Part shown: positions 1-54,645 of the stretch, in pieces
Position numbering within the stretch: position 1 is the first letter of the stretch
Layout: each line of letters begins with the position of its first letter
Assembly: GCA_043228905.1 (NCBI GenBank)
Contig: JBHGNT010000001.1
Location: forward strand, 26,102,001-26,166,000
From: Azolla caroliniana
Taxonomy: Eukaryota; Plantae; Polypodiophyta
Reading direction: 5' to 3'
Length of the DNA stretch: 64,000 bases
The notes under the pieces: model-generated
What the model saw: only the letters and a program-made list of their open reading frames with translations
Told to the model about the DNA's origin: nothing
Database searches by the model: none
Translations under genes and position numbers: made by a program

Positions 1-13
1 GGAGAAATACGGG

Positions 14-1468: not shown

Positions 1469-3281
1469 CGAACATACGGAGTCGGTCCGGAAGATGAAGG
1501 AGGCTCTTGCTGCAGCTCCGGCACTCTGGACGACTGTCTACGAGAAAGGCACTCCCGTCTACATAACGGTAGATACGAGTCCGACCGGGATCGGATGGGT
1601 CGTCAACCAAGAAGATGAGGACGGCATTCGGTTCCCAATCCAGTTCGGCGCGAAGGTCCTCAGCGAGCGACAGCGAGGATACGCCTAGGTTAAACGCGAA
1701 CTCTGGGGTATCATTTCGGCGGTGAAGGCCGATAAAGACTATCTGATCGGGACAGAGGTGATTATCGAGACGGACTGCCTGCCGATTCCCGGCATGGTTT
1801 CCGGATGCGCTACCCCAGACCTGGCAATGCTCAGGTGGATAGCTTACATGAAGTCCTTGGATCCGAAAATACGACACATTTCTGGGAAAGACAATGCCAT
1901 GGCCGACATGCTTTCGAGGGCGCGATTCGACGACGAGTGCGGCATGGTTTCGAAGGACGAGGAAGTTGGTGTGGACTTCTTCGAGACGGCTTAAGTAACA
2001 ACCGAGGGGGGGGAGCACTCCGGCGCTTAACGATTTCAACGAGAGCAAGTACGACGGGGAGTGGATGCAGATTGGGGGATTCTTAAGGAGGAAGACGCCG
2101 GACGCGTCATGGACAAAGGACGAGGCCAACCGGATCCGGAAGAAAGCGTACCGATTCTTTCTCTAGGACGGATACCTGTGGAAGCACCCGAAGAAGAGAA
2201 ACGGCATCCCACAACGAGTAGTGGCGATGAAGGAGGAACAGGAGGAGTTGCTGAAGGCCTACCACGACAGCCCCTGGGTTGGACACCGTGGGACGTGGGC
2301 CACGTTCGAGAAACTAAAGGGGAAGTACTGGTGGTCGGGACTGTACCGGGACGTGCATCGGTTCGTGACAACTTGTGAGAGTTGTCAGGTACACTCCATA
2401 GTCCGACATCGGGACGAGCTTCACCCTACATACCCTCCGGTCATCCACTTCAAATGGATGGTAGATTTGGTGACGATGCCGATGGGCGTAGGGCAGATGC
2501 GATATCTGGTGCTGGCCCGGGAGGACCTGACGAACCAGGTGGAAGGCCGAGCCCTGCAGAACAAAACGACCGCGGCCGTGTGTCGGTTCCTAATCGACGA
2601 CGTGATATGCCGGTATGGGTGCGTCGGGAAGATCGTGGCTGACCGCGGGGAGTTGGACGCCGAACAGGCCGAGGAGTTGTTCGACCGGTTAGGGGTCAAA
2701 CTCTCACTCACCACAGCGTACAATCCGGAGGCGAACGGGAAGGTGGAGCACGGACATGGACCGATCGTCAAAGCGCTAGTCCGGGCGTGCGAAGGCCAGG
2801 TCGGGAACTGGCCACGACTGTTACCTTATGCCTTGTGGGAGAACCGGACAACGCACAGTTCGGTAACCGGGTTCATGCCGTCAGAGCTCATGTTCGGACA
2901 GAAGCCGATCATGCCGATGGAACGGATGATCTCCTCTTGGGCGACAGTCGACTGGAGAGACGAGATGAACCGGAAAGAACTACTAGCGGTGCGTATACAG
3001 CAGCTCGAGCGGAGGCCAGAGGACGTGGAACGAGCGGCGGAGAGATTTCAGACGGCGAGGATGAGGAACAAGGCCCGGTTCGACCGAACGCACCGGCTCC
3101 AACCGAAGAAAATCGAGGAAGGAGACTAGGTGCTAGTGTACGACAGCAGCCTCGACAATCAGCACCGGGCAACACGGAAGTTTGCAAAGCGGTGGTTCGG
3201 GCCTTACATGGTAACGAGCGCCAACGACAACGGGACATATCACCTGGCGGAACTCAACGGTACGAGGGTGGCGATACCGGT
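1469..3281 (+). pseudogene. pol: A1 RNase H-integrase, disrupted
   Basis: ORFs 1494-1688, 1722-1994, 2221-3129 (YHDSPWVGH..CESC; MVDLV; IVADRGE; NGKVE) and 3130 onward (RWFGPY). Confidence 0.92.
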
Positions 3282-3351
3282 ACTCCTCATCCGGTTTGTT
3301 CATCGTCACTGATCTTCTCCCTTCCCATCCGGAGGGACCTGTCTCCCAACA
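3279..3351 (-). repeat. 73-bp terminal fragment of a copia family C LTR
   Basis: Reverse complement reads TGTTGGGAGACAGGTCCCTCCG..., matching the LTR starts at 22329 and 62858. Confidence 0.9.
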
Positions 3352-4902
3352 CCACGTAAGGCCCGAACCACCGCTTCGCAAACTTCCGTGTTGCTCGGTG
3401 TTGGTTGTCGAGGCTGTTGTCGTAGACTACCACCCAGTGCCTTCCTCGATTTTCTTAGGTCGTAGCCGGTGCGTTCGGTTGAACCGGGCTTTGTTCTTCA
3501 TCCTCGCCGTCCGAAGTCTCTCCGCCGCTCGTTCCACGTCCTCTGGCCTCCGCTCGAGCTGTCGTATACGCGCCGCTAGCAGTTCTTCCTAGCTCATCTC
3601 GTCTCTCCAGTCCACTGTCGCCCAAGAGGAGATCGTCCGTTCAATTGGCATGATCGGCTTCTGTCCGAACATGAGCTCTGACGGCATGAACCCTGTTACC
3701 GAACTGTGTGTTGTCCTGTCCGCCCACAAGGCATAAGGTAACAGCTGTGGCCAGTTCCCGACCTGGCCTCCGCATGCCCGGACTAGCGCTTTGACGATCG
3801 GTCCGTGTCCGCGCTCCACCTTCCCGTTCGCCTCCGGATTGTACGCTGTGGTGAGCGAGAGCTTGACCCCTAACCGGTCGAACAGATCCTCGGCCTCTTC
3901 GGCGTCCAACTCCCCGCGGTCAGAACGATCTTCCCGACGCACCCGTACCGGCATATCACGTCCTCGATCAGGGACCGACACACGGCCACGGTCGTTTTGT
4001 TCTGCAGGGCTCGGCCTTCCACCCGGTTCGTCAGGTCCTCCCGGGCCAACACCAGATATCGCATCTGCCCTACGCCCATCGGCATCGTCACCAAATCTAC
4101 CATCCATTTGAAGTGGATGGCCGGAGGGTAAGTAGGGTGAAGCTCGTCCCGATGTCGGATTATGGAGTGCATCTGACAGCTCTCACAAGTTGTCACGAAC
4201 CGATGCACGTCCCAGCCACCAGTACTTCCCCTTTAGTTTCTCGAACGTGGCCCACGTCCCACGGTGTCCAACCCAGGGGCTGTCGTGGTAGGCCTTCAGC
4301 AACTCCTCCTGTTCCTCCTTCATCGCCACTACTCGGAGCGGGATGCCGTTTCTCTTCTTCGGGTGCTTCCACAGGTATCCGTCCCAGGAGAAAGAATCGG
4401 TACGCTTTCTTCCGGATCTGGTTGGCCTCGTCCTTTGTCCATGACGCGTCCGGCGTCTTCGTCCTTAAGAATCCCCCAATCTGCAGCCACTCCCCGTCGT
4501 ACTTGCTCTCGTTGAAATCGTTAAGCGCCGGAGTGCTCCACCCCTCGGTTGTTACATAAGCCGTCTCGAAGAAGTCCACACCGACTTCCTCGTCCTCCGA
4601 AACCATGCCGCCCTCGTCGTCGAATCGCGCCCTCGAAAGCATGTCGGCCATGGCATTGTCTTTCCCGGAAATGTGTGGTATTTCCGGATCCAGGGATTTG
4701 ATGTACGCTATCCACCTGAGCATTGCCAGGTCCGGGGTAGCACATCCGGAAACCATGCCGAGAATCGGCAGGCACTCCGTCTCGATAATCACCTCTGTCC
4801 CGATCAGATAGTCTTTATCGGCCTTCATCGCCGAAACGGTAACCCAGAGTTCGTGTTTAACCTGGGCGTATCCTCGTTGTTGCTCGCTGAGGACCTTCGC
4901 AC
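3352..4902 (-). pseudogene. pol: A2 pol, C-terminal part (RNase H end and integrase)
   Basis: ORFs 4193-4828, 3870-4208 and 3589-4107 are frameshifted integrase segments. Confidence 0.9.
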
Positions 4903-5443
4903 TGTCGCGTTGTTACGCGCGTGCGTGTAGAAGGGGCGGGACCGCGGGGGTCTTGGACTAGGGAGTGGAGGAGAAAGAATAGGACACGATATGGAGGCTT
5001 AGCTCAAGAGGAGAAGAGGAAAAGAATAAGACCACGACATCGAAGGAGAGATCGGCGGAGGCAAGATGTTCAACAAGTTATGTTAAAACAACGAACGGTT
5101 ACAACAGTGGTGGCCGCCATGGCCGCACCAAAATGACCATCCGAAAACCCTAAAGGGAAACCCAAGAAGAAAATCCTAACCGAAACCCTAACCCTAAAAC
5201 GAAATGGGAAGAGGGAGAACCCTAGACTAAGTGGTATACCTTACTCGCACAAAATAGGCAACCCCCTCATAAGTGACCCCTCCCTTCCTTTTATAGCCCA
5301 AGGAGGGAGGGACCTTACAATGTGGGACAAAAATGTCCCCTCTCTTTCTATGCACCATCCTAGTATACATGTGCACATGTTGCACACCACTGACTTGCCC
5401 CTTCCACCCCAGTTTCCGCCTATGGACAAAAATCTTCACGACA
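4903..5443 (-). repeat. B1 3' LTR
   Basis: TGTCG..CGACA termini; direct repeat of 8584-9124; TATAAAAG on the minus strand at ~5290; GGTGGGGGTGGA tract at 5444-5455. Confidence 0.95.
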
Positions 5444-5535
5444 TCCACCCCCACCAAACCGCACACCCACCGGTATGTGCCAAGAAAGGAAAGGGTGAGA
5501 GATTTCGTCCACGGTGATCAACCGGGTCTTTCGCC

Positions 5536-8439
5536 TTACCGGCACCCAACTGCCTTGCCGGTCCCTTGCTGGCGCCGATCCGTCTTGCCGGCCCCGACCC
5601 GTCGACTCCATCCGATCCGCCATGTCCACCGCGTTTCCCCGGACCGTCGGCTCCATCCGATCCGCCATATCCAACGTTCACGCCTTCTTCTTCGACCGAT
5701 CCTCCCGAACGCCATTGCCGATCTGGTCACTCTTACTTTGTCCGCCATGTAGGTCCTCCGATTAGGCCCTCGGTCACCCTGTTTGCTCGACGGATTCCGC
5801 CCCTCGCGTACCGCTTGTGTTCTATCTCCGGCTCGATCCTCTCGTCGTCTCGAACACCTCGTGCCAATTCCCTCCGTTCCGCGCTCACCTTCTGTAGGCT
5901 CTTCCCGTGCGCCCTTGTTGTCTCCCGAACATGCGCTCGTTCTTCGGTCCCTCGGTGACCTCATTACACGCTCCTTGCTTCTCCCTCGCTCGCCGTGCTC
6001 TCTCGCCGTAAAGCATACCGTCATCCTGACCACCATGTCAGTGTCCTTCGCGACTCCCGTTACCGCTTCATCCCGACTCTCGTCCTCTTGGCCCGCTTGG
6101 CCTCGCATGCCTTCCGGGAAGCCGCGCTTCCCCTTCCCGGCGCGCAGCCCGTTGCTCTTCACGCACCTCCTCCGGTTCTCAAGACATAGCCTTCCATGCT
6201 CGCCGATCATCCTCATGCTTGTCGTTCGGCCCTTACGCGGCCACATCGCACGTCTCGCACTCCGCTCCGCTCTGCGTCCCCTTTCGAAAAGGTACGTTGC
6301 TTCCCCGACATCCGTGTCGGTGCTCTCGTCTTCGGTGTCCTCCGCAACCTCCGATGTTGCCGCTTCGCCCCGAGGTACACCCTCTTGGTCCGCCTGGCCT
6401 TGTATGCCCTCCGGGAAGCCGCCACGTTTTCTCTTCCCGGTGTGTACCCCGTTGTTCTCCGCGCATACCCTCCGTTTTCCCAGACACAATCCTTCGTTCA
6501 CGCCGATCACGCCCGTCTCGCTTTGTTGATCTTGGCGTCTCGTCGCACCGCCCGTCGTCCCGCACTTGCCTCTTGAAGGCTTTCCCCGACCGTCATCGTC
6601 GGTCACTCGTTGCGGCTCTTCCGGGTGCATGCTTACTTCTTGGCCCTTCGCTGGCCGTAGTGCATGCTCCGTTTTACGCGCCTCATCCGTCGTAGACCCG
6701 ACCTCCGCGTCGGTCTCTTCGTCCTGTCTTGCCGTAGCCCCTTTTGATTGCGGCTTGCCGTCTTGGCCGTGCTCGTCCGTCTTCACGCACCGGGTACCCG
6801 TTCTAGTGGCCTCATCAGTTCCGGTCTCCGACTCCTCACCGCCACCCTTTGTGTCTCCGGTCTTATGTTGAACCGCAACCGCCGAAGTCTCAAGGATAGA
6901 TGTGGAGGGCTCCTCTCGCTCTCGGTCTTCTGCCAAGCCGTAATCACCGTGCCCGGTTAGCTTCCTTCTCGCGCTTACCGGCTCCCACCGAGTGTTGTGG
7001 CCCGTCCGCCTCGACCTCCAACCGTGCCAACTTAGCCTTCGCCCGGATCGGTCTCGGCCGATCGAGTTCCAGTTAGGTCGGCTCCCTTCCGTAATCGTAA
7101 CCGGCCGGTAGATGTTTGTCCGAACAAATCCGACCTTGCCAGCTCTTCTTCGGTTCGGGCCCGGTTGACCAGACCCCGCTCCAATGTTCTTCCGCGACGT
7201 CTTTCGGTCATGTCGGATTATCGACCGGTCCATCTTCCGGTCGGGTCGGTTCCCGACTCTCTCCTCTTTGCCGCTCCCGACCTCTCCGTCGGTCCTCTCG
7301 TATATGCCCGTTCCGGGCCTCGCGTCCTCATCTTCGTACGTGTTCGCTCCGGGCCACACCTCCTCATGGTCACCGCCCTTCTCTCCGGTCTTATGTTGGC
7401 ATTTGAGCGCAACCGCCGTAGTCTCCGGTCTCGGTGTCGAGAGGTCTTGCCTCCGTCCGCTATGACCTTCCTCGTCGTCGTTTCGATCGTCCGCTTTGCC
7501 GCCGCCACCTTTCGTCTCTCCGGTCTCACGTGGGCTCTCGGGGCCGATTGCCGAAGTCTCTAGAATAGGTGTGGGAAAAGTCCCGATACCGTTACTCGCC
7601 GATGCCATGTTCGTAGCCACCTTCGTTCGAACGTCGTGGTCCATGGCTATCTCTTCCTCGTTCTCTTCGTCGCCGTGGTAGGCCGCCTTGCCGCCACCAC
7701 CGCCCGTCGCTCTAGGTCTCACGCCAGCACTCGGGCCGGCCGCCGGAGTCTCTAGGACCGGTGTGTGTAAGGTCGCGGCACCGCCGCTTGTCCGCTCCTC
7801 ACTCAATGTTTCGGGCCGCCATGTCCCGAATCCGTAGTTACCGGCCTCCATGGCCATCCCTTCACCGCAAGGCAAGAGGGTCGCTTGCTCCGCACCCTCT
7901 CCTATCTCGCCGTCATATGCTCTCCCGGCCTCCGTATAGGCCCCGTCTTCTATGTCTAGGGAGGCTTCTTCCTCCGCATCCTCCGATCGTCTCTGGCCTG
8001 TCTCCATAACAAGCCCTTCTTCGGCTCCGATTTTCGCCTTCACAAGCTCGCATGCCTCTCGTATTAGCGCTTCTAGGTCGAGCTCCTCCGAACCGTTTTG
8101 CGTTGAGCTCTCTTCCGGCAATAGTGCGTACTCACTCGCCGCTCTCTTTTCTCTGCCGCTCGCGGGCCACGTTGTTGCCGACCGCTCCCCATCGGGTTGC
8201 CGGCATACCCACTCCGGTTTCGCGTATCCGCACGCTTCCAATAGGGCTACCTCCAAGGACACCCACGACTCGTGAGCTTCTCGTAGCTCCTTGACCTCCT
8301 TGTGCTCCGATGCGGCCGCCACTCGAGGAAAATACTCTAGCCGCATCTCGTCCACGCCCCCTTTCGCCATCTCGGCCTCGTACGCTTCCAAGAACCTCGG
8401 GACATCGTCCCCGTTGAATCGGCCGACTCGATCGACCAC
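5536..8439 (-). CDS. 967-aa ORF: Gag-like N-terminus plus long E/G/R/T-rich low-complexity repetitive tail
   Basis: VGRFNGDDVPRFLEAYEAEM..FPRVA resembles family A Gag IGRFGGKDATSYLEAYRTEI..FPRVA. The original start is probably ATG 8546, one frameshift upstream (compare B2). No knuckle, PR, RT or IN motifs. Confidence 0.6.
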   Translation of the reverse strand: MVDRVGRFNGDDVPRFLEAYEAEMAKGGVDEMRLEYFPRVAAASEHKEVKELREAHESWVSLEVALLEACGYAKPEWVCRQPDGERSATTWPASGREKRAASEYALLPEESSTQNGSEELDLEALIREACELVKAKIGAEEGLVMETGQRRSEDAEEEASLDIEDGAYTEAGRAYDGEIGEGAEQATLLPCGEGMAMEAGNYGFGTWRPETLSEERTSGGAATLHTPVLETPAAGPSAGVRPRATGGGGGKAAYHGDEENEEEIAMDHDVRTKVATNMASASNGIGTFPTPILETSAIGPESPRETGETKGGGGKADDRNDDEEGHSGRRQDLSTPRPETTAVALKCQHKTGEKGGDHEEVWPGANTYEDEDARPGTGIYERTDGEVGSGKEERVGNRPDRKMDRSIIRHDRKTSRKNIGAGSGQPGPNRRRAGKVGFVRTNIYRPVTITEGSRPNWNSIGRDRSGRRLSWHGWRSRRTGHNTRWEPVSARRKLTGHGDYGLAEDREREEPSTSILETSAVAVQHKTGDTKGGGEESETGTDEATRTGTRCVKTDEHGQDGKPQSKGATARQDEETDAEVGSTTDEARKTEHALRPAKGQEVSMHPEEPQRVTDDDGRGKPSRGKCGTTGGATRRQDQQSETGVIGVNEGLCLGKRRVCAENNGVHTGKRKRGGFPEGIQGQADQEGVPRGEAATSEVAEDTEDESTDTDVGEATYLFERGRRAERSARRAMWPRKGRTTSMRMIGEHGRLCLENRRRCVKSNGLRAGKGKRGFPEGMRGQAGQEDESRDEAVTGVAKDTDMVVRMTVCFTAREHGERGRSKERVMRSPRDRRTSACSGDNKGAREEPTEGERGTEGIGTRCSRRREDRAGDRTQAVREGRNPSSKQGDRGPNRRTYMADKVRVTRSAMAFGRIGRRRRRERWIWRIGWSRRSGETRWTWRIGWSRRVGAGKTDRRQQGTGKAVGCR

Positions 8440-8561
8440 CCTTCGACGGCTTGTTGAGCCGCATCTCGCTTCGCCATCTTTCGTCCAGCTTCCATCACGA
8501 TTTTTGCTATCATCTCCTCGAAGTCCAAGTCTTCTTCCACCTCCATGCTCCCTTGCCGCCC

Positions 8562-8579
8562 TTCACGTCGGGTTCACCA
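8562..8579 (-). promoter_or_regulatory. B1 primer-binding site, tRNA-Trp
   Basis: Plus strand TTCACGTCGGGTTCACCA equals the recalled 3' 18 nt of plant cytosolic tRNA-Trp; 4 nt from the LTR. Confidence 0.85.
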
Positions 8580-8583
8580 AAGA

Positions 8584-9124
8584 TGTCGCGTTGTTACGTG
8601 CGTGCGTGTAGAAGGGGCGGGACCGCGGGGGTCTTGGACTAGGGAGTGGAGGAGAAAGAATAGGACACGATATGGAGGCTTAGCTCAAGAGGAGAAGAGG
8701 AAAAGAATAAGACCACGACATCGAAGGAGAGATCAGCGGAGGCAAGATGTTCAACAAGTTATGTTAAAACAACGAACGGTTACAACAGTGGTGGCCGCCA
8801 TGGCCGCACCAAAATGACCATCCGAAAACCCTAAAGGGAAACCCAAGAAGAAAACCCTAACCGAAACCCTAACCCTAAAACGAAATGGGAAGAGGGAGAA
8901 CCCTAGACTAAGTGGTATACCTTACTCGCACAAAATAGGCAACCCCCTCATAAGTGACCCCTCCCTTCCTTTTATAGCCCAAGGAGGGAGGGACCTTACA
9001 ATGTGGGACAAAAATGTCCCCTCTCTTTCTATACACCATCCTAGTATACATGTGCACATGTTGCACACCACCGACTTGCCCCTTCCACCCCGGTTTCCGC
9101 CTATGGACGAAAATCTTCACGACA
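8584..9124 (-). repeat. B1 5' LTR
   Basis: Direct repeat of 4903-5443, adjacent to the PBS. Confidence 0.95.
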
Positions 9125-10880
9125 GCGCTGAACCGGATTGGGAACCGAATGCCGTCCTCATCTTCTTGGTTGACGACCCATGCGATCCCGGTCGGACTCG
9201 TATCTACCGTTATGTAGACGGGAGTGCCTTTCTCGTAGACAACCTTCCGGAGTGCCGGAGCTGCAGCAAGAGCCTCCTTCATCTTTCGCACCGACTCCGT
9301 ATGTTCGTCTCGCCACTCGAATTTCGCCCCTTTTTCAGCAACCCGTATAGCGGCTCGGCAACATGGGCGTAATGCGGGATCCATATGTGGTAGAACGCGC
9401 ATGCTCCCAAGAACCTCCGTACCTCCGTGATCGAGTTACAATCGGGCTACATTGTGGAGATGGCTTCCACCTTAGCCGGAGACGGTTTCCGGCCATACGG
9501 TTCGCATAGATGTCCGACGACCATGATCTCTGATTGCCCGAAGGCCGATTTCTCCCCGGAGAAGGTGAGCCTCGCGTCCTCTAGCCTCTGCAGCACCCTC
9601 TCGTAGTCGTCAATGTGTGTCGCCACGAATTTCCGGCATCCGTCCGGTCCGATCGTTTCGTCCTTTTTCTCCACCGGACATCCCTTGATCGGGATGTCGT
9701 CCAAGAATGGCATGGTGATGTCCGGCATACAATCCCTCAGCACCTTGTTCATTGCATTCACCATGTGGGCCACCGAGTTTGTCCCTCCTTGTGGCAGGGT
9801 ACACATCCGTACTAGGCCGAGAGGAGTCTGCATCGTCGTAATGTCTCTGCTCTCTATGGCTAGTTGGAACTGATCGTACCCCGAGTACAGATCACCAACC
9901 GAGTAGATCGGCCTTCCGGCGAAGGCCTCCGCGAACTCGTCTATCGTTGGTCCGATTCCTGCGTTCCGAATGGTCACTCTGTTTATCGGTTGCAGGTTTT
10001 GAATGAAGCACAACTTCCCGTTCTTTTTCGGTACGGTAAACCACCGGTTCGAGTACGGGGCACTCGACGGTTCGAGGATACCCATATCGACTTTCTGCCT
10101 CAATAGCTCCATTAGCTCCGGGATGTGAGCTCTCGGTACCGAAATTGGCTTAGAATTCCACGGCACATGCGGTACCGTGAATATCACCATCGGCTTCACG
10201 ACTGTCGGGTCTACGCACCCGATCTCTTCCGGTGAGAATGCGAAGGCTTTCCCATGCCTTCTGAGCATTCTCCCAAACCGGTCTTCTTCCGCCTGCAGCA
10301 GGAACCCGCCCCCACCGATTCTGAGCTCCCGTAGCGTTCTGTCGGTGAAGGTGTGTCCTATGCAGGCCGGATCTCGTAAACTGGGGTCCGACGCGACCCC
10401 CTTGATTCGCAAATCGCTGCCCTCCGGTAAGGGTGCCGCGACTGGCCTTACCTTCTGGTCCACAGTCTTGTACTTCGTATTAACCCGGGCCGTCTGATCC
10501 GACTCGAGCCCCCGACTGAAGTCCGTGATGACTTCATACATCTCTTCTGAACGAACCGGTATTGTCCGGTCTTCTTTAAGGCCCTCTCCGACCACCTCTC
10601 GCAGTATTCCCAAGGTATCGTCGAAGGAGACCGCCTCCACGGCTCCGTTGATTTCCTCGCTGGGCTCGAGAACTCCGCATGCCCGAAGTCGCTCTTCCGC
10701 CCTTGTCTTTTCTCGGCCAACGACGCCGACTATCGTACACCCTCCGTTGTCGGAGAAACAAAACTTCCTACTTATGGTACAAGGTTTCTTCGGTTTCGCC
10801 TCTATCGTAAATTTGTGGGGTTTTCTCGGAGTGTCCGGACTGTCGCGGCCCCATGCCTTGACAGTCCTCTCTAAAAATCC
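9125..10880 (-). pseudogene. pol: A2 pol, N-terminal part (RT and start of RNase H)
   Basis: ORF 9447-11357 from GFLER onward contains PWNSKPISVP, WFTVPKK, DLYSGY, LPQGGTNS, FLDD. Confidence 0.92.
10815..10880 (-). promoter_or_regulatory. Candidate -1 frameshift signal of A2
   Basis: G GAT TTT TAG, then stem GGACTGTC/GACAGTCC with loop TGGGG able to pair with downstream CCCCA. Confidence 0.75.
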
Positions 10881-12997
10881 TCTCGGTTCTCGCCACCGAG
10901 GGACTCGCGGTTTCGCTCGTGGTTCGGTCACACCGTCAAGAACTGGACCGAATGACGCCTGTCCTGACTCTTGACCCTCGCGTAAGCCGACCCGTTGTCC
11001 AGCAACTTGGTCTCCATCTACGATGCCGTAATGTACGGTTCTCCTAGTATGACCGGGTGCGAGGATGTCTCCTGCACAAAGAAATGTTGATCTATCTCGA
11101 CGTCGCCGATCTTGACTCGCACATTTGGGCAGGCCCCGTGTAGTTCCTCGGTGGCGCGCGTCGCCGCCCGTATCTTCCACCCGTTCTTGGTGTTGATTGG
11201 CCATTTCCCCTTCTTGTAGAAGTCCATGGACATCAGGTTTATTTCCAAACCGTGGTCCACCAGCACCACCACCAGTTCCTGAACATCTCCGATCTTCACC
11301 AGGGTTTCCGTGGTTGCTCGGGCCCAGTGTGGCCTCGAGTAGTGGCTCTCCGCCCACTCGTCTTCCAGCGCCATGTCCTCTATGTGAGTCGTCTGCACCT
11401 CCACCGGCCTTTCCGGTTCTGTCTCCGTCGACAGCCTCTTCCTCTTCACCAAGTCTACGATGGAATCGTGGAACTCCTTCTTGGCGATTCCGAGCACCTC
11501 CCGCAACGATAGTTCCACCTTGTTGTCGAGGATTCGTTCTTCCAGGACCTTTCGTAGGTCCGTGGTCCTTTCGATCTCTGTGCCCAACCGGTATCCGCCC
11601 TTCTTGTGGTTATCCTGGGCACTGGTCTCACCGGCCTCGTTCCGTTTCGGCCCGAATCGGGTTTCGTATCTTTGTGAGGGTCCGGCCCCTCCGGTTTTAC
11701 CTACCTGTTTGTTTTCTACCAGAGCCTCGTAATTCTGGGAAGCCGCTTCGACGAAACCCGTCTTTTCTTTGACCGGGTCACTCCACCCGGTTACCTCCTG
11801 GAGCCGCTTCTCCGCGCGGTTCGCCTCGTCTTTCTTTAGTCGGGCACAGGCGAGGCCTTCCAGCACCGTCGGCCAGAACCCGGCTTTGCTCTCCTTCCGG
11901 GCCTCGCTGCCTCCGACCCGAATACCGGCTAACGCTGAGTAGTGGACGCTCTCCGCGTGTCGGGCCGCCGCCTCTTCCATCAGCCTTTTCATTCCTCCTC
12001 GGCCGTCGTTTCGGTTTAGGGCCCTCCGGGTATCGTTGGCGTGCACCCAACCTTCCCACAAGTACACTACTCGGCTTTTCAAAGCCTCCGCAAAGTCCCC
12101 GCAGTCTTTCCGGATGTGGCCGACCTCGTCGCACCACATGCACCTATTTCTTGCCGGAGGCCGTCGGTCACGAGCTTGTTCGCTGCCTTCCCTCCGAGCC
12201 TGGGCGATCTAGAGATCCTTTACCGCCCGTGTCAACTCCTCCAAAGCTGTTCCCCCGGACGAGCCTCTGACCACGCCGGTCGAAGCCAATCCGGTTTCGA
12301 GCCACTCCCGGGTCTCTTCCCTTCGCGCCTGCGGTATCGGTTCGAAATTCCTTGCTGCGATAGGACCCGCCCCGATCGCCCCTGTATCAGCCCACTCCCA
12401 CCGTTTGTCAAAACGGCCGCAGACTCTTTTTACCACGGCCCAGTTGGCCGTCAGCCCGTCTTCGGTTTCCAGTAAGGAGCCCACTTGCTCCCGATCCCGT
12501 GCGTCAACCGATTTGACAAACAATAGGACACAACTTGTGTCCAGAACAGTCCGATCGAGCGCCGAAAGGCGCGCAAAGCGTTCCTCAAACTCCCGGAGTA
12601 GTACCGACGCATTTCTTCCTTTGTTGGGGGACTCCACCCACTCCATGAAGCCCCGCTTTGAAAGTCGAAGCGCGTCATCCAGCCTATATTTCTCCAGGAG
12701 CCGTCCTTCGAACTCCTCCGAGGTCCGGCTCTCCGCCCGGACCTCGAGCACCTCCGCATGGATGCCCGGCATCGCCACTCGAGAGAATCCGGCAAGACGC
12801 CTCTCTTCCGGAATATCCCTCATCAACATCTCCGCCCGGTAGGTTGCCAAATAACTCGTGGCATCCTTTCCACTGAACCGGCCGATCGTACCGACAATCG
12901 CCTCAATAGCCCTGTCAAGGGCGCTGGTGCCCTCGCGCGCGCTCACTATCCAGTCCACGGCCGAAGCCATGGCCTCTGCAAGGTCCGACCCCCTCAT
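10871..12997 (-). pseudogene. gag: A2 gag-protease
   Basis: ORFs 12209-12997 and 11018-12139 are separated by a single TAG; CCHC knuckle; VDHGLEIN. Confidence 0.92.
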
Positions 12998-13014
12998 CTT
13001 CTGCCATGGCCTTT

Positions 13015-13032
13015 TTCATGTCGGGTTCACCA
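13015..13032 (-). promoter_or_regulatory. A2 PBS, tRNA-Trp
   Basis: TTCATGTCGGGTTCACCA, one C>T change. Confidence 0.85.
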
Positions 13033-13036
13033 AATA

Positions 13037-13687
13037 TGTCGCGTTACTACGCGCGTGCGTGGAGAAACGAGGCGGGACCACCGGGGTCTTAAACCAAAGA
13101 GCAGGTGATAGAAGGGGAAAGAGAAAGAGAGAGACGCTCGGTTACGTATGAGCCAAGAAACACAGGGACACGGCCCTGTCAACGCAGAAGACACGAATGG
13201 ACACAGAGACAGAGAGACACGAATGTTTGTATATTAATGAATGACAAATAAACAACAGAGCACGCGAGCGGTTACAACCGAACAGGCCGACGAACAGATG
13301 TCGATGCCTGCTCGTCTGCGCACGAAAGGGGATAGGATGGAGGTGCTGCCGGAAGCACACAGGTGTTCCTCGAAGCAGCGCGAGCCTCTCGAAAACCTGC
13401 AGAGAAAAGCGATGGAGAACGAATAGAGGAGAAGCGTTCGGTTTCGGTCCGACAGTAGTTCGTCCTCCTCAATGCGCGATCCCCTCTCCCCGCGTCTCCC
13501 TCTTTGTTTATATCTTCAAGAAGGGAGCCGTTTCCCTCATTTACTTCCTACCTACCGAATCTAACTACCCACGATATACCTATGTACCTAATTCCCTATT
13601 ATATACATTAAAGGGCGCGCACGCGTGAAGAGCCGGTTCACGCGCGCTATGCACCGATTGCGCCAAGGGACGGTTTTCTTCACGACA
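13037..13687 (-). repeat. A2 5' LTR
   Basis: TGTCG..CGACA termini; similar to the solo LTR at 61488-62105; outer flank GCGT lies in the A3 integrase. Confidence 0.9.
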
Positions 13688-24883: not shown

Positions 24884-25473
24884 TGTCGTGAAGAATTTCG
24901 GCCAGAGGCGAAAACCGGGAAACATTGGCTACATCGGCGGGGTGCTGCGTGTGTACGCACCCGTGTACATTTAGTGTGAATATCGAGGGCGCCTTTATGG
25001 CGCCGAAGAGTAGTCAAGTCGGGGACAGACGATCCCATGTAAGTCGGGATTGTCCCACATTGTAACGCATCCCCTTCCTTGTTCTATAAAAGGAAGGGAA
25101 CGCCCATTGTGTAAGGGTTGCCCATTTTGCATTAGAGGGTATACCGTTAGGTTTAGAGTTAGGTTCTTCTTCATCTCCTTCTGCGTGTTTCGCTTAGGGT
25201 TTGCTTGGTTCGGCCTCCTGTGCAAGACCCCGCTCGGCGCGACGAGCTGAGAGCTCCCCGACGGCGGCTTGACAGCAAACGTCTATTGTAACCTACGTCA
25301 GTCCGGCTCGACGCCGGGAATGTATTCTTCCCTTTATATATATATATATATATTTTCCTGTGTATATTCGCGTCGTTGTTGGCGTCGGGTGCTTACCCTT
25401 TCCTGCGTTTTCTGTACATAAGGCGTGAGTCGGGTTGTGCGTGTGTGCGTGTGCGTGTGCGTGAGTCGGTGTT

Positions 25474-25505
<32 letters not shown>

Positions 25506-25637
25506 CCTTCGGTTGCTTCCGGTGTGTCTCTGGGATGCCCAGATACAGTGAAGCACGACTTCCTACGCTCCATCACTCTCTAGTCCATGACCCCTGTGGT
25601 CCCGCCTTTCTCCACGCACGCGCGTAACAACGCGACA
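24884..25637 (+). repeat. B2 5' LTR
   Basis: TGTCG..CGACA termini; repeat of 34579-35334; contains (TA)n and (CT)n. Confidence 0.95.
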
Positions 25638-25674
25638 TCTTTGGTGAACCCGACGTGAAAGGCGGCAAGGGAGG

Positions 25675-26409
25675 ATGGAGTCGGAAGACGACGACCTTGC
25701 GGAGATGGTGGCCGAAGTGGTGTTGGAGTCAGCACGAGTGGTGATGAGGCGAGAAGCGGCGCAACAGGAGGTTGAGCAAGTGGTCGAAAGAGTCGGTCGT
25801 TTCAACGGGGACAAGGTGCCATCTTACTTGGAAGCCTGCAACGCGGAAATGGAGGAGCGTGGCGTAGACGAGGCGTTGAGGCTGGAGTTCTTCTGCCGGG
25901 TCGTAGCTGTCCGAATGCATGCGGAAGTGAAGGAGCTCCGTGAGGCTCATAGTTCGTGGGAGGCGCTCGAAGAGGCGCTCCTGAAGGCATACGGAGGACG
26001 GCGGAAGAGCCGGGGACGACACGACTTCGACCAGTGGGTAGCATTGGCAAAGACCCACCGGGGTGCAACGAAGGCATTCTGGGAGTTCAAGCGATGACTT
26101 GCTCGGCTCCCAGAGCGGGAACAAGGTTTGGTGGGGGCGGACAAAGTCCTTTTGTTCGTCAGGTCGATCGACCGAGTGGAACGGGAAGCCATCGGGATTG
26201 AGCTCGAAGACGATGATGGAGCGAATGGGCTTACAGAGGACTGGTGGAAGGTCGGAAGGGTGTGCCAAAGGCTAGACAACGAGCGAGCCGAGAAGGCTAA
26301 GAGGAAGGTACATGACGGTGTGCCATCATAGCGGGAAGAGGCCGAACGGAAAAGGGAGTTGGCAAGGATCGGCGTTGGGGCCAGGATTGTGGAGGCATAC
26401 GCAGCGCTC
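25675..26409 (+). pseudogene. B2 Gag-like N-terminal region; tail resumes at 32150
   Basis: MESEDDDLAEM..VGRFNGDKVPSYLEAC..VLLFVRSIDRVERE..GLTEDW matches family A Gag VLLFVKSVDARDRE..GLTANW. Confidence 0.8.
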
Positions 26410-26864
26410 TGTCATAACTAGACTCGAACCCATAACCTTTTGTTACACGGGTCGAGACTTTACCAATAGGTTATGAATTGTAATTTGAAGGATATTATTT
26501 TCATTTAGGTTTTATTGGGAAATTGATGTATATTCCAGATTTCTCTGGAACATTCTAGAAACTTCAGGAGTATTCCTGAAGACACTATAAAAGGAGGCGC
26601 AAGGCATTAGTTCGAACCAAATCAGTTCAACGCCAGTCTTAAGCCTTCTAACTACTGTTGTATATCTTCCTTCATATAATACATATATCTTTCGCATCAT
26701 CATTCTCTCTCTCTCTCTCTCTCTCTCACTCACTCATTCCTTCTCTCAAAGTTCGACACCTCTCATAGTACTAATCCTTCTCTGTCTTAGTACTATTCCC
26801 CAACAATAGTACTAATCCTTCTTTTAGTACTAATTCCTTCTCTGCCTTAATAGAGTTCCTGACA
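26410..26864 (+). repeat. Chromovirus 5' LTR
   Basis: TGTCA..TGACA termini; TATAAAA 26586-26592. Confidence 0.97.
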
Positions 26865-26866
26865 GT

Positions 26867-26878
26867 TTGAACCGATTT
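26867..26878 (+). promoter_or_regulatory. Self-priming PBS candidate
   Basis: TTGAACCGATTT is complementary to AAATCGGTTCAA in the LTR (31904-31915; one mismatch at 26619-26630); no TGG tRNA-type PBS. Confidence 0.75.
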
Positions 26879-26948
26879 TTGGGTGCCTGTCTGGTCTTTT
26901 CTCTCCCTCCTTTCCTACTAGTCTCTTATTTCCCTTTTCCTTCATCCC

Positions 26949-28118
26949 ATGGCCACCGTTAGCGTTGAAGAGTATCAATCCGTTTTCTCGGAATTTCAAT
27001 GCTTGAAAGAGAAGTTTCATGCTTTGGAACAAGAAAATCAACGCTTGTTGGGGGATCTTCAGCAAATTTCCTTAGAAAAGCAGCAAACGCAACAACAGCA
27101 TGGGGAACTTGCGTTACGCGTGCAACAACTCGAAGCAACCATCGTAGCAATGCAACAACAAGGGCACGGAGCACAAGGGATTCATAAAGAACCCAAGATT
27201 GGCCTTCCCACGAAGTTCGATGGAACGCGATCGCAGTTTAGAGGGTTTCTTAACCAGGTACGGTTAGTTATTCAAATGCATCCGTCCCGATATCCCACCG
27301 ATGCATCACGAGTGGGTTTAGTAGGCACGTTGTTAAATGGCTCAGCATTAGCATGGTTCGCTCCGCTACTAGAAAAGGAATCTCCAGTACTAAATAATTT
27401 TGAAGAATTCATAAGTGAGTTTAAAGCATGTTTTGGAGATACTGACAGCATAAGGACTGCAATCAACAAAATCCGGCGATTACGCCAAGGTGACCGTCCA
27501 GCCTTCGCATATGCTGCAGATTTCCGCCTACTCGCCGCCGATATCCCCTGGGATGATCAAGCATTGATGGAGCAGTTCCGCTATGGTCTACGCAACGATG
27601 TCAAGGATTTACTCTTGACTTTCCCTGAAGAGCCAAAATCATTAACAGAAGCAATCAGTCGAGCGGTCAGATGTGACAACCGCCTCTTCGAGCGACGTTC
27701 GGAACGACAATTTCAGATGCCGAGGGCAAGATCCGAGCCTACCTATGCCTCAGTGGTAGCAAAACCTTTTCAAAGGGAGTCACATAATGCGCCTCCAGTA
27801 AGTACTCCAACTCCAATGGAAATTGACACTACACGTCGTCGTGGGCCGCTATCGGAGGAGGAAAAGCAACGACGCCGAACAAACCGATTATGCCTTTATT
27901 GCGGTGGACCAGGGCATATCGCGATAAACTGTCCCCATAGACCAAGAAGACAGGTAAACCAAGTCGTTGTTAGTTCTGACTATACTAAACCCGAGTCTAT
28001 TTCAGTAGGAATCTCTGATAGTCCTCATAGTCATAATAGTCCTAATAGTACTAATAGTCCGAATCTCGCAAACAAATTTGATGTCCTTAGCCAATTAGAA
28101 GAAGAGTTAAACGACTAA
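26949..28118 (+). CDS. gag: Chromovirus Gag, 389 aa, intact
   Basis: Coiled-coil-like N-terminus; PTKFDGTR; LRQG; PTPMEID; knuckle CLYCGGPGHIAINC. Confidence 0.93.
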   Translation: MATVSVEEYQSVFSEFQCLKEKFHALEQENQRLLGDLQQISLEKQQTQQQHGELALRVQQLEATIVAMQQQGHGAQGIHKEPKIGLPTKFDGTRSQFRGFLNQVRLVIQMHPSRYPTDASRVGLVGTLLNGSALAWFAPLLEKESPVLNNFEEFISEFKACFGDTDSIRTAINKIRRLRQGDRPAFAYAADFRLLAADIPWDDQALMEQFRYGLRNDVKDLLLTFPEEPKSLTEAISRAVRCDNRLFERRSERQFQMPRARSEPTYASVVAKPFQRESHNAPPVSTPTPMEIDTTRRRGPLSEEEKQRRRTNRLCLYCGGPGHIAINCPHRPRRQVNQVVVSSDYTKPESISVGISDSPHSHNSPNSTNSPNLANKFDVLSQLEEELND

Positions 28119-28150
28119 GTCCAGCCAAAATAGGAGCCGTTTGGTTGGAC
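28106..28150 (+). promoter_or_regulatory. Candidate -1 frameshift signal of the chromovirus
   Basis: G TTA AAC, 6-nt spacer, stem GTCCAGCCAAA/TTTGGTTGGAC; pol lies in the -1 frame. Confidence 0.75.
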
Positions 28151-31100
28151 AGCCCTAGATCTGTGCAGCCCATTAGTGGTTCCATTCCCTCTAAGCAAGT
28201 TAGTGATGTGTTCGTAGCCCAAGTAGCAGTTAGTACTAAAAGTACCCCTCCAGTACATACCTTAGCCCTTCTAGATTCCGGAGCTAATTCTTGCTTCATG
28301 GATAGGAATTTTGCCCGAGCTCATCAGATATCTCTCAGAAAGCTCCCATGTCCAGCCTCAGTAGTAGTCATTGATGGTCGTCCCATTGCTTCTGGTAATA
28401 TCATAGAAGAGTCGGAACCCGTTAATATTGTCCTAGATAACTTAACATGTGTAGTATCATTTAATATTATTAGTATTCCAGAACATCCCATAGTTTTAGG
28501 ATTACCATGGTTCGAGTTACATAACCCAGACATAGATTGGAGGACAAGGGAAATCCGGTTGCGACAAACCCAAGGATCTACCCAGAAGGTTGCAACCATT
28601 TCGCTACGTCAGTTGCGTGAGGAAGGGCGCAAGGAGGAAATGTTTCTCTTCGCAATATCAGTACAACCCTCCAGCACCACCAAAGAGGAGTCCACCGTTC
28701 AACTTCCCGAGAAGTATCGTCAGTATGCTGATGTGTTCGATAAAGTACAAGCCAACACACTTCCTCATCATCGGCCGTACGATTGCGCCATCGACTTACA
28801 ACCGGGAAAAGAGCCGCCATGGGGGCCGATCTACAATTTGTCACCAACCGAGCTAGAAGTCCTTCGAGCCTATATAGAGGAGAATTTGGAGAACGGTTTC
28901 ATTCGGCATTCGAAATCTCCAGCCGGCGCACCCATTTTCTTCGTCAAGAAAAAAGATGGCTCGCTTCGACTCGTTGTAGATTACCGTGGCTTGAATAAGG
29001 TCACAGTAAGAAATAGGTATGCTCTTCCCCTTATCTCAAGTCTTTTAGAACGGATCAACGGTGCCAGGTTCTTCACGAAGATCGACTTACGAGGAGCCTA
29101 TAACCTCGTACGGATCCGACCAGGAGATGAATGGAAGACCGCGTTTCGCACCAGATATGGGCACTTCGAGTATACGGTCGTGCCGTTCGGACTCACTAAT
29201 GCGCCGGCAGTCTTCCAGCACATGGCGAATGATATATTTCGAGATCTCTTGGATGATTTTTTGATCATCTATTTGGATGATCTACTGGTTTATTCAAAGA
29301 CCCAAGAAGAACATGATTCTCATGTACTATTAGTACTAAAACGACTTCGAGAACATGGTCTGTATGCAAAGTTAGAGAAATGTAGTTTTGGGTGCAACCA
29401 AGTGGAATTTCTCGGCTATGTCATCTCCTCAGAAGGCATATCTATGGACCCAGCCAAGGTCAAAACGGTGATAGAATGGCACACTCCGCATTCGGTGCGG
29501 GATGTGCAATGCTTCCTAGGCTTTGCAAATTTTTACCGGAAGTTCATACAAAATTACTCAAAAATTGTGCTGCCTCTCACACAGCTCACCAGGAAGGGAC
29601 AATCATTCATTTGGTCTAAAGAGACGGACATGGCTTTCGAGAGTCTTAAGAAGGCGTTTACATCAGCTCCAATTTTAGGTCATGTGGATCCGGAAAAACC
29701 ATTCATTATCGAAGCTGACGCATCGGATTTCGCATTGGGGAGCATTCTGTCACAACAGGGTAACGACGAGAAGCTACATCCTGTGGCTTTCCACTCCCGT
29801 AAGTTTGACGCCGCCGAAATCAACTATGAAATTCATGATAAAGAGCTATTAGCAATAGTTGATTCTTTTATGCAATGGAGGCATTTCCTGGAGGGATCTC
29901 CTCATCAGGTCACTGTATTCAGTGACCACAAGAACCTTGCCTACTTTCAAGATGCTCGTGTACTGAATCGACGTCAAGCTCGGTGGGCCCACTTCCTCAC
30001 ACGCTTCGACTTCAAAATTACATATCGTCCGGGGAAGCACCAAGGGAAGGCAGATGCATTATCACGGCGTTCGTATCTAACACCACGTCCCGGTGAGCCA
30101 GCTTTCGATAACTAGAAGCAAGTAATCTTGGGTCCAGCACGACTGCAAGCAGCACAGGTCTTTGACATGCCCGTGGATTCCGACATTACCAATACTATAC
30201 GTGAGGACTTGAAGACTGACGCTTTCGCCCAAGCTATACTAGCACAAATTGACCCCTCTCGAGCGTCATGTTCACAATCACAATCACCAGGTATGGATTA
30301 TCGGCAATTCAAATACTGTGATGGATTACTCTTCTTTAAAGAACTTTTGTATGTTCCTAATGGTTCTTGCCGCCTTCGAGTAGTACAAAATTGCCATGAC
30401 ACATATACAGCAGGACATTTTGGTAGTACTAAAACATTAGATTTAGTACAACGATCATTCTGGTGGCCCCGTATGCGACAATTTGTCGAAGATTTTGTTC
30501 GGACTTGCGATACATGCTGCAGAGCGAAAATGCCAAGACGACATCCATATGGTTTATTAGAACCATTACCAATTCCAAGCAAGCCATGGCAATCCATTGC
30601 TCTTGACTTCATTACAGATCTTCCAGTCTCTAAGGGATTCAGTGCGATTCTCACAGTGGTGGATCGATATACGAAGATGGCTCATTTCTTACCATGTACT
30701 AAAGAAATATCTAGTGAAGACACCGCCGAAATTGTCATGCGGGAAGTATGTCGGCATCATGGACTCCCTGATAATATCATCAGCGATCGTGGACCCCAGT
30801 TTGTGTCAAAATTCTGGAAGCACCTTTTTAAAATGCTGAAGGTCACTTGTAACCTCTCCTCCGGCTACCACCCACAAACCGACGGTCAAGCCAAACGAAC
30901 AAATCAAACACTGGAGCAGTATCTGCGGTGCTTTCTCAACTATCATCAGAATGACTGGGCAGATATTCTTCAGTTCGCCGAATTTGCCTATAATAACGCT
31001 ATCCACGCATCGACTAAAGTCACGCCATTCTACGCTTATACGGGATATCATCCCCGGTGGTGTGTCCTTGAAACCCCAGAAGTGTCCACAAATCCTTGCG

Positions 31101-31702
31101 CGGAGGATCGTTTGGAGCGGTTACGCAAGATACAAGCGGATTTATCTACTCAACTCTAGCAAGCTCAACAATCACACAAGGACTACGCAGATCGTCATCG
31201 ACTTCCATCCAGTTTTAACATTGGAGATCGGGTGTGGCTGCTACGACGACACATCAAGACTACTCGCCCATGTGAGAAGTTGGATTATCGGCGATTAGGT
31301 CCTTTCCGTATTATCGGGAAGATTAATGATGTCGTTTTTCGTCTCGAGCTACCTCCGCAACTTCGGATACATCCGGTGTTTCATAGTTCTCTCCTCGAAC
31401 CCTATCACGAGAGCACTATCCCAGGACGTACTATACAACCACCACCTCCTATCGAGCTCGAAGATGGACCTGAGTATGAGGTCGCTGCCATCCTCGATTC
31501 CAAGATTGTTCGCAACAAGCTCTACTATCTAGTCGATTGGCTAGGATATAGTCCCAGCGAGCGTACTTGGGAACCGATCGAGAATGTGACCAATGCTCGT
31601 GCTTTTCTAGAAGACTTCCATCGACGATATCCCGAGAAACCGGGTCCTCAATCCAAAACGACTCGTGGAACTCGTCGTTTTAAAGGGGGGATAGTGTCAT
31701 AA
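28106..31702 (+). pseudogene. pol: Chromovirus Pol (PR, RT, RNase H, integrase, chromodomain) with two in-frame TAG stops
   Basis: LLDSGA; YLDD; EADASD; HHCC and DDE; YEVAAILDS..YLVDWLGY..TWEP; stops at 30113-30115 and 31157-31159. Confidence 0.95.
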
Positions 31703-32149
31703 CTAGACTCGAACCCATAACCTTTTGTTACACGGGTCGAGACTTTACCAATAGGTTATGAATTGTAATTTGAAGGATATTATTTTCATTTAGGTTTTAT
31801 TGGGAAATTGATGTATATTCCAGATTTCTCTAGAACATTCTAGAAACTTCAGGAGTATTCCTGAAGACACTATAAAAGGAGGCGCAAGGCATTAGTTCGA
31901 ACCAAATCGGTTCAACGCCAGTCTTAAGCCTTCTAACTACTGTTGTATATCTTCCTTCATATAATACATATATCTTTCGCATCATCATTCTCTCTCTCTC
32001 TCTCTCTCTCTCACTCACTCATTCCTTCTCTCAAAGTTCGACACCTCTCATAGTACTAATCCTTCTCTGTCTTAGTACTATTCCCCAACAATAGTACTAA
32101 TCCTTCTTTTAGTACTAATTCCTTCTCTGCCTTAATAGAGTTCCTGACA
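31695..32149 (+). repeat. Chromovirus 3' LTR
   Basis: Direct repeat of 26410-26864. Confidence 0.97.
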
Positions 32150-33350
32150 CGCTCAAAGCGATGCTCGAGGAAGAGGGAGGATCGAGACAAAAAGCTGAGA
32201 CCGAGGAGACGCACTTGTCCCACGCGACGGCGGAAGATCGGTACGACGGTACCACGGGAGAGGGTGCGGAACGAAACGCCCTCTCAACTTGCAGAGATAG
32301 AACGGCCAAGGACGAGGCCGAGATACCGATCGCGGAATCAGAACGTTGGGACCAGCGGTTTCGGGCATGTTAGCCCGAGATCCGGGTCATTGGAGAAGCA
32401 AGCCCAGACGGGGCTTGCGCGATCAGTAAGAAAATGACCGTCGACCACGAAGAGTCGGTGGCTACGGACAAGGGCGTAAAACGGACGGGCGATACTTTGT
32501 GTCTTCCCACACTTGCTCTCGAGACGATGGCAAGTCGGGCCCGAGTGCCCACGTGAGTCCCAAGCGGACGAAGGCGGCGGCGAAAGGCCAAGAATCACCG
32601 GCGAGACGATACGGGGAAGGAGCGGACGAAAGCCCACAGACCCGATTCCGGAGAACTCGGCAATTGGGCCCGTATGCCCATGTAAGACTGAGGAGATAGA
32701 TGGCAGTACCGAGGAGTCCTGGCACGATGCCAGCGAAGACGGATGGGAAACGGCCTGCGAGGAGGCCGAGGACGGACACGGCACGAGAGGATCAGCATTC
32801 CGATTCGTATGGAGCAGAATCCGGTCATGGATCGTTCGATCAGGGCCGGATTCGGTATAAAGGTGCCGATATGGAAGGGCGTGCGGGACGAGCCGCCCTC
32901 TTTTACATGGGGAGAAAGACCGACTGGGCGAAGGTCGAGATTAGGAACGAGGATGAAAGTCGGTCCTATGGGATTCCTTACACTGATCTGGCTGCCGGCC
33001 CGAGATCGGTGGCGACAGGAGAACGGGACTCGGAAATCCGGAGAAGGACGATCGGATTTGGACGAGAACCGGGCGGAGCGGACTCCCGGATGACCATTCC
33101 AGGAGGGAGGAAGAGAGCAGGCCTACGAAGAGGCCGAGGACACGGTATGTCGGTACCACGGGAGAGGGTGCGGAGTAAACCGCCCTCTTAGCATGCGGAA
33201 AAGGACGACCCGGGACAGGGTTGGGAATACAAATCGGCGGCCTACGGAGGATCCTTCACACCGGTTCTAGAGACTTCGGCAATCGACAACGCGGTCGACA
33301 TAAGACCAAGATACTGACGGTGGCGGCGAGGTGACGAAGGCTATGGGCGT

Positions 33351-33624
33351 AACGGAGTCCGGTCCTATGGGACCCTCACACCGATCCGGAGACTCCGGCT
33401 GTTCGGCCAACGTGGCAACGTAAGACCGAGGGAGAAGGAAGGTGACGGCGGGAAACGGGACCGGACTACGCGGAAGACACGAGGAGAGTCCGGGAGGGAC
33501 TCAAACAAAGACACCCGAGTTTCGGCAAGCATAGAAACGGAGTCCGGTCCTATGGGACCCTCACACCGATCCGGAGACTCCGGCTATTCGGCCAACGTGG
33601 CAACGTAAGACCGAGGGAGAAGGA
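33351..33624 (+). repeat. About 88-bp direct repeat, 2 copies, in the B2 internal region
   Basis: AACGGAGTCCGGTCCTATGGGACCCTCACACCGATCCGGAGACTCCGGC... at ~33351 and ~33536. Confidence 0.85.
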
Positions 33625-54584: not shown

Positions 54585-54645
54585 GCAATAGGAGCTAACA
54601 ATCATTGGCACATACCGGAGGATGTGCTGGTTTGGTGGGGGTGGA

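Follow-up and report, generated by a model that had tools for sequence, protein, structure and literature searches.

How non-autonomous long terminal repeat (LTR) retroelements win places in the particles of their helpers, and why some of them keep an open reading frame (ORF), is an open question. TR-GAG1 is shorter than 4 kb, carries a 433-amino-acid Gag-like ORF with a zinc knuckle and is without internal duplication (Chaparro et al., 2015, PMC4350172). The Phygy elements are autonomous, 7.7-10 kb long and listed with no extra ORFs; they are marked by a 4-bp NCGN target duplication and a tRNA-Trp primer-binding site (PBS), the dominant PBS type in the Phygy row of the same source (Neumann et al., 2019, PMC6317226). 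Here, a stretch of 64,000 nucleotides from Azolla caroliniana (contig JBHGNT010000001.1, positions 26,102,001 to 26,166,000; hereafter the window) was analysed, in which a first-pass annotation had proposed a satellite retroelement, B1, that depends on helper elements of a family A. The view of B1 as a non-autonomous parasite of Phygy-like helpers with an ORF under selection was upheld. The B1 family separates variables: it has a selected head, a kilobases-long frame selected only for openness, interchangeable heads, and members in which either capsid half is missing. It is unusual for a long ORF whose ratio of non-synonymous to synonymous change (dN/dS) is about 1 to be strongly depleted of stops and frameshifts, and the case shows that such ORFs can be under selection though standard tests call them neutral.

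Like TR-GAG elements, B1 has LTRs, a PBS, a polypurine tract (PPT) and one Gag-homologous ORF, and it is without reverse transcriptase (RT), RNase H and integrase. However, its 4,222 bp exceed the TR-GAG size limit of <4 kb, and whereas the TR-GAG ORF is a Gag precursor, Gag accounts for only 110-200 of the 600-1,400 residues in the B1 family. A tail of duplicated modules unrelated to Gag makes up 80-90% of the ORF in this family, no knuckle is left, and the capsid is whole or reduced to either half, a half being present in B1. Because the size and Gag-precursor features fail, the family is not filed as TR-GAG, although it works like it. The contrast with TR-GAG is weaker than the first-pass annotation had claimed, as most relatives have a whole capsid. 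B1 resembles Phygy elements in its 4-bp NCGN duplication and in the Physcomitrium homologue of its head; its PBS, which it shares with the helper, is probably of the tRNA-Trp type. The helper and the cis signals of B1 are called Phygy-like from the target duplication and the PBS.

Mouse IAP 1-delta-1 is likewise non-autonomous, with one in-frame Gag-headed ORF, and its own RNA is reportedly favoured in cis (PMC6466679). However, its ORF is a Gag-Pol deletion fusion, whereas the B1 tail has no similarity to pol and has grown by internal duplication, and in the B1 family we infer a cis effect from the conservation of the frame. Ty1 p22/p18 and Drt2 are capsid fragments cut at a domain border, and the L001/L005 subfamily of B1 relatives similarly has the C-domain only (PMC8458377, PMC12530519); in contrast, B1 has the N-domain only, and its family is a mobile dependant of the helper, with a capsid 33% identical to the helper capsid. 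LARD and TRIM elements are also non-autonomous and keep LTR ends, PBS and PPT, and B1 exceeds 4 kb as LARDs do, but their coding regions are described as lost, whereas the interior of B1 is one long frame under selection (PMC4350172, PMC13570524). Non-autonomous elements form a continuum according to PMC13570524, and the B1 family has its place within it. Such an element is mentioned neither in the passages found in a Physcomitrium transposable element survey (PMC7466625) nor among the titles and abstract beginnings searched; moss genome supplements could hold the family as an unclassified repeat.

Relatives of B1 were collected from metagenome contigs and sequencing-run contigs. A protein search gave 10 relatives of 557-1518 amino acids, 0 with a Pfam domain, and a pattern scan gave 20 loci out of 367 pattern matches. 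pol was present in only one of these 20 loci, where it lies upstream of and outside the B part, and locus L001 contains no pol anywhere between its PBS and its 3' LTR. The ORF of L002 alone exceeds 4.2 kb; L001 is shorter. In four DNA runs, 2,973-15,346 contigs per run lay on the element (the queried stretch includes some helper flank); these contig numbers, which are not a copy number, show that the B1 family is a repeat. The loci are related and their accession numbers form one short series, probably from one campaign, so that they are not independent. Contigs of high coverage are collapsed from many copies and approximate the amplifying master, and some contigs look chimeric (L001, which ends in a second PBS, and P0005, which repeats itself). 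No relative was found among viral contigs. The order along L005 (597-8761) is helper pol, an LTR, a B interior and then another LTR unlike the first. Either this is a real element, tandem or recombinant, or the assembly crossed between elements at the LTR ends that they share. Run X18, only guessed to be RNA, yielded 21 interior contigs, 18 of them <90% alike, and run X19 yielded none; these were not used as evidence.

Comparison of these sequences indicates that the tail is neutral at the residue level and that its frame is conserved. The ratio of changes at 0-fold to those at 4-fold sites in the tail was 0.99 (confidence interval 0.84-1.18) over three pairs without a common member, with 0.98 and 0.95 in the control frames, and the mean BLOSUM62 score of tail replacements was -0.66, like the control frames (pol, +0.12). 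Only 4 new stops were seen in nine high-coverage loci where 60 were expected; the control frames showed 39 of 64 and 35 of 65 expected. In L001 and L006, lineages differing by 20-25%, no stop was seen against 6.2 and 8.2 expected, respectively. The B2 tail, aligned over 77 sites only, was excluded from the stop count. Seven of nine loci with coverage >=10 were open across the B match (624-1426 codons), compared with 0 of 11 at low coverage (Fisher p 5e-4, on our own classification of open and low-coverage loci). Codon phase was as in B1 at 99.8-100% of aligned sites in all seven open copies, which are 76-80% identical. In eight of eight open copies the stop codon falls in the interval from 93 nucleotides (nt) upstream to 144 nt downstream of the point where the 3' LTR starts, and the conserved frame extends to within about 150 nt of that point.

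Indels gave a similar picture. Among clusters of non-zero net length, 29 of 36 were in frame in the tail and 4 of 15 in the LTRs, with 16 further clusters of net zero. At read level, 9 of 10 rearrangements of known net length were in frame, a count that covers joints with inserted letters displayed, several hundred further joints lying outside it. Because the repeats are already in phase, in-frame rearrangements are possible without selection, but the missing stops are not so explained. Of the signs of an unselected ORF named in the first-pass annotation, frame-random indels were not found, whereas a dN/dS of about 1 was found in the tail; the comparison of head with tail that it proposed separated the two, with ratios of 0.23-0.58 in a head under purifying selection.

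The tail that had been taken for low-complexity sequence proved to be built of duplicated modules, and the motif T-P-x-L-E-T occurs in it at ~7764, ~7572 and ~6903. Protein-level constraint on the T-P-x-L-E-T module, apparent in a first tally, was gone on a 67-copy tree, where changes by codon position numbered 54, 37 and 54 (p 0.22). A plain NG86 value of 0.74 for the tail was likewise rejected as a sign of constraint, as control frames gave 0.81 and 0.69, pointing to transition bias. At 4-fold sites, divergence in the tail is roughly half of that in the head. A search for longer fused tail forms (1083-3090 amino acids; query P0013 residues 250-618) found 0 among 1583 candidates, which is weak evidence, and an Atlas search with the C-terminal 194 amino acids gave no usable match.

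The B1 frame at 5536-8562 is open for 1008 codons from stop to stop, 967 of them from position 8439, and the remaining two frames of the same strand contain 31 and 34 stops. In Markov simulations (order 1, 2 and 4; 1000 runs each), the longest frame was 372-502 codons. Because simulated frames topped out at 502 codons, base composition, raised earlier as a caveat for this purine- and GC-rich strand, does not explain the B1 frame. As annotated, the 967-codon ORF has no zinc knuckle and is unrelated to pol: a Pfam search of it returned 0 families, it contains no CCHC knuckle, and it shows no similarity to the pol copies of the window. The first ATG of B1 (8546) lies in a frame other than that of the long ORF, with a product of 69 residues, which agrees with the frameshift near 8440 that had been noted between the ORF and its ATG. 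The frameshift near 8441 is missing from contigs of four sequencing runs and of two further runs. Because contigs of other copies are without it, it is a lesion of the B1 copy alone, and B1 itself is probably dead. After 0.65% neutral change, a frame as long as that of B1 stays stop-free with a 53% chance, so B1 alone says little on selection, and it is the relatives that do. That B1 is open while its neighbours are broken, as observed earlier, is mostly explained by age.

The head of the ORF is a piece of capsid. The Gag homology of B1 amounts to ~110 amino acids, not ~70 as first given, when 35 codons of the ATG frame are counted, and Gag is not truncated at its end: an internal, in-frame deletion of 83 codons takes out the capsid C-terminal domain. 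The B1 deletion junction is crossed without gaps by one contig, 81% identical, from run X5, and on this single contig record the deletion probably predates B1. The full head, as in L002, is predicted to fold as a two-domain capsid of the Arc/Ty3 type (predicted local distance difference test (pLDDT) score 93), with an N-domain at about residues 33-107 and a C-domain at 111-207, and the model matches Arc, Ty3 and copia capsids. Against dArc1, VIA gave Z 10.3 with a root-mean-square deviation of 7.9 over 158 residues, and for the N-lobe Z 9.0 with 1.8 over 69. Foldseek with the head gave no E <0.001, and 10 of its 10 top rows were Arc, copia or Ty3 capsids; searching PDB sequences with a profile of the head brought up no useful match. 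The named proteins homologous to the head, at ~30% identity, belong to Physcomitrium (P0081, E 1.3e-14), Riccia and Adiantum. Together with the Phygy marks, these homologues point to a probable host among mosses or other seed-free plants. A modelled complex of helper capsid and B1 N-domain scored 0.23, 0.34 and 0.22 (controls were not folded).

The whole head is found in P0003, P0005, P0006, P0010, P0011, L012 and B2 (an older family member in the window), and a whole two-domain capsid is normally the state of the family. The N-domain is deleted in another, amplified subfamily with P0002, P0004, P0008 and L005, the C-domain is retained in L001, L005, P0002, P0004 and P0008, and the head deletions coincide with domain borders. 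No helper-type CCHC knuckle was found in P0001-P0011. The ratio of 0-fold to 4-fold change was 0.44 in the pooled heads (helper pol, ~0.2) and, for the B1 N-domain against three full-capsid copies, 0.58, 0.36 and 0.23, with two intervals excluding 1. The head is thus under purifying selection. The head of P0059 has its N-domain joined directly to the tail region, apparently in another frame, which is a possible third C-domain deletion.

The end of the ORF is rich in Arg and Trp and carries W-x-I-G-W repeats. In 12 of 12 profiled family proteins the early quarter is acidic and the last quarter basic, and the more distant P0013, P0173 and P0174 have the same layout, with W-x-I-G-W ... S-K-W at the end. 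Relatives at only 25-45% identity retain the W-x-I-G-W end, among them P0011, P0013 and P0173, whose selection did not depend on the motif. A search with this end found 8 proteins among 12 candidates, motif-selected in their ends but not in their heads. A different capsid is present in P0177 and P0178, and yet another, without the C-domain, in P0179 and P0181; the three types of Gag head are 29-32% identical mutually and 26-35% to the helper. The tail has thus changed heads, one tail standing on three Gag heads, and forms with only the N-domain have arisen at least twice. The single records of swapped heads could be assembly chimeras.

The pattern of the frame requires that an RNA gain something from the open frame in it. 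We tentatively favour, at somewhat less than an even chance, a B1 family of pol-less, Phygy-type elements whose frame is kept for a cis-acting adaptor of capsid piece, spacer and basic tip. Active copies would be transcribed and translated, and copying would be by the RT and integrase of family A, as the cis signals suggest. The capsid piece or half would dock on the helper particle lattice and join it, the tail would be a spacer of free sequence between head and tip, and the basic, Trp-rich tip, standing in for the lost zinc knuckle, is predicted to bind the RNA of the element itself and so load it into helper particles. That the protein might recruit its own RNA had been suggested at first pass. 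Any stop or frameshift along the spacer would uncouple head from tip, and such copies would stop spreading. There are precedents in Ty1 Gag, which binds RNA via basic clusters without a knuckle (PMC4974528), and in the IAP 1-delta-1 fusion protein, which works in cis (PMC6466679). A bolder form of the adaptor, which we hold to be possible but less probable, is that the tail is a portable hitch-hiking module on at least three Gag lineages ~30% identical, with a whole, N-only or C-only capsid, which loads its own RNA via a knuckle-free Arg/Trp tip while the sequence of the spacer is irrelevant. If this were true, half-capsid adaptors would be a satellite strategy, and the family would offer a natural domain-deletion set for probing the cis preference of LTR elements.

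Several observations weigh against the adaptor. Residue constraint was not found in the tip, where the final 330 nt gave a ratio of 0.80 (control frames 0.91 and 1.07), the DNA beneath it hardly varies at silent sites, for which an RNA signal is an equally good explanation, and the second half of the Trp motif is lost in B1, L005 and P0007. The basic composition is the default of the strand, other frames being basic throughout, and in the last 100-150 nt the frames differ among copies. That either capsid half is dispensable is easier explained if the head matters little. On the B1 branch after the deletion there are 3 silent and 3 replacement changes (p 0.06), so that continued selection on the half-capsid is not established. 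The p-values overstate independence, as the loci are related and the high-coverage contigs collapsed.

A close rival, which we consider a serious minority possibility, is that translation is kept for its own sake: all that would matter is that ribosomes travel the RNA to its end, through protection from decay or silencing or through coupling to packaging, and the tail protein would be filler. This would account for neutral residues in a kept frame, for the clustering of the stops of all eight open copies at the 3' LTR start (-93 to +144 nt), for frames that diverge in the last 100-150 nt and for the loss of either capsid half, and the RNA that Ty1 and Ty3 package is drawn from the translated pool (PMC4974528). 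However, it leaves unexplained why the tail, rather than shrinking, has been duplicated up to 400-1,200 codons and why distant relatives still show the Trp end and the change from acidic to basic; long 3' untranslated regions are no predictor of nonsense-mediated decay in Physcomitrella (PMC6009662), and non-coding LARD and TRIM elements spread without an ORF (PMC4350172).

Less probable, and in our view unlikely, is that the tail acts by its composition, a long, charge-balanced disordered chain taking the RNA-protein complex into condensates of particle assembly. The tails of 12 of 12 proteins contain 14-20% Asp/Glu and 14-23% Lys/Arg, whereas the alternative frames are strongly basic, and composition together with an Atlas model of P0004 (mean pLDDT 0.42) predicts disorder. 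Asp-Glu exchanges by third-position transversion also exceed 4-fold transversions (20/164, 0.12, vs 22/474, 0.05; p 0.002). Yet the replacements are no more conservative than those of control frames, and a composition shared by close relatives follows from descent.

We regard it as highly improbable that the tail frame is unselected, a by-product of in-phase repeat recombination, purine-rich composition and collapsed assemblies. The dN/dS of about 1 would fit, in-phase repeats that recombine yield in-frame indels automatically, and private stops are erased in high-coverage contigs, some of which look chimeric (L001, P0005). However, stops are missing between lineages 20-25% apart (L001 and L006, above), composition-matched simulations never went beyond 502 codons, and B1, a single real copy from a genome, shares its phase with all seven open copies. 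The least probable reading is restriction, proposed at first pass, in which a half-capsid poisons helper lattices like Ty1 p22/p18, Drt2 or Fv1: although L001, L005, P0002, P0004 and P0008 keep the C-terminal domain alone, as p18m and Drt2m do (PMC12530519), this domain is missing from B1, p18m and Drt2m are specific to their own subfamily (PMC12530519, PMC8458377) whereas the family and helper capsids differ as stated above, and the family is mobile, repeated and dependent on helper particles, with B1 a recent insertion.

The anatomy of B1 matches that first described, with no protease, RT or integrase but with ends, PBS, pre-PPT hairpin and PPT of the helper type (Table 1). The LTR pair is identical at 534 of 541 sites (98.7%), with 7 differences and K = 0.013, corresponding to ~0.5-0.7 million years at usual plant rates. 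From LTR identity and the empty site, the insertion of B1 is recent. The target duplication is GCAC/GCGC, with one mismatch (empty site GCGC), and reads join across B1. The B1 LTR resembles helper LTRs at the outer ends alone (~30 and ~55 bp), the middles being different. No host tRNA was found in the 7 loci scanned. Both B1 LTRs contain telomere-like short AAACCCT repeats (5145-5200 and 8826-8880), which we take to be telo-boxes.

Table 1 Features of B1 and associated elements in the window
Feature	Position	Strand	Remarks
B1, LTR element without pol	4903-9124	-	4,222 bp
5' LTR of B1	8584..9124	-	541 bp, TG...CA
3' LTR of B1	4903..5443	-	541 bp
PBS of B1	8563..8579	-	preceded by a 4-nt spacer; matches helper PBSs at 13032, 18290 and 24520
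ATG and first 35 Gag codons	8442..8546	-	long N-terminal helix; ATG frame ends after 69 codons
One-base frameshift between ATG frame and long frame	8440..8442	-	not in other copies
Capsid N-terminal domain of B1	8212..8439	-	purifying selection
Deletion junction in B1 head	8205..8220	-	in-frame, 83 codons lost, corresponding to the capsid C-terminal domain
Tail of B1, duplicated modules	5539..8196	-	~886 codons; acidic near head
Arg/Trp-rich ORF end, candidate RNA-binding tip	5590..5710	-	W-x-I-G-W repeats on a 45-nt DNA repeat
Stop codon of B1 ORF	5536..5538	-	93 nt before 3' LTR
Pre-PPT stem and G-rich PPT	5444..5483	-	common to B1 and helper
Target duplication, left copy	4899..4902	.	GCAC; 4-bp NCGN, one mismatch to right copy
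Target duplication, right copy	9125..9128	.	GCGC
Empty site, single GCGC	1648..1651	+	in inverted paralogue of host copy, 92-97% identical
Helper host copy, split by B1 in RNase H	3350..13687	-	Phygy-like Ty3/gypsy
B2, older diverged family member	24884..35334	+	whole capsid head, decayed tail, LTRs 96% identical
Ty3 element nested in B2	26410-32149		455-bp LTRs 99.6% identical, 5-bp duplication

The helper copy that hosts B1 comprises Gag with a CCHC knuckle, protease, RT, RNase H and an integrase region. Positions 38-102 of Pfam RT_RNaseH begin just beyond the B1 insertion (E 0.00096, below the curated cut-off), in agreement with the annotated interruption of the helper RNase H. Window positions 1-3281 hold an inverted, internally deleted helper copy, head to head with that at 3350-13687 and without B1; it is 92-97% identical to the host copy and supplies the empty site within the window.

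B2 has the target duplication ATGC/ACGC and sits in the gag of another helper copy, and B2 is in turn split by an unrelated Ty3 element, which makes three levels of nesting. A small element at 53197-54803, with 158-bp repeats 98% identical and an integrase fragment, shares its pre-PPT stem and PPT with B1 and the helper, and is possibly another dependent derivative. Two related elements, separated by 40 kb, contain one and the same 54-nt tandem unit, its length a multiple of three (3 copies at 22401-22562 and 7 copies at 62944-63325), and positions 55427-55927 hold a tandem array with a 104-nt unit in ~4.8 copies.

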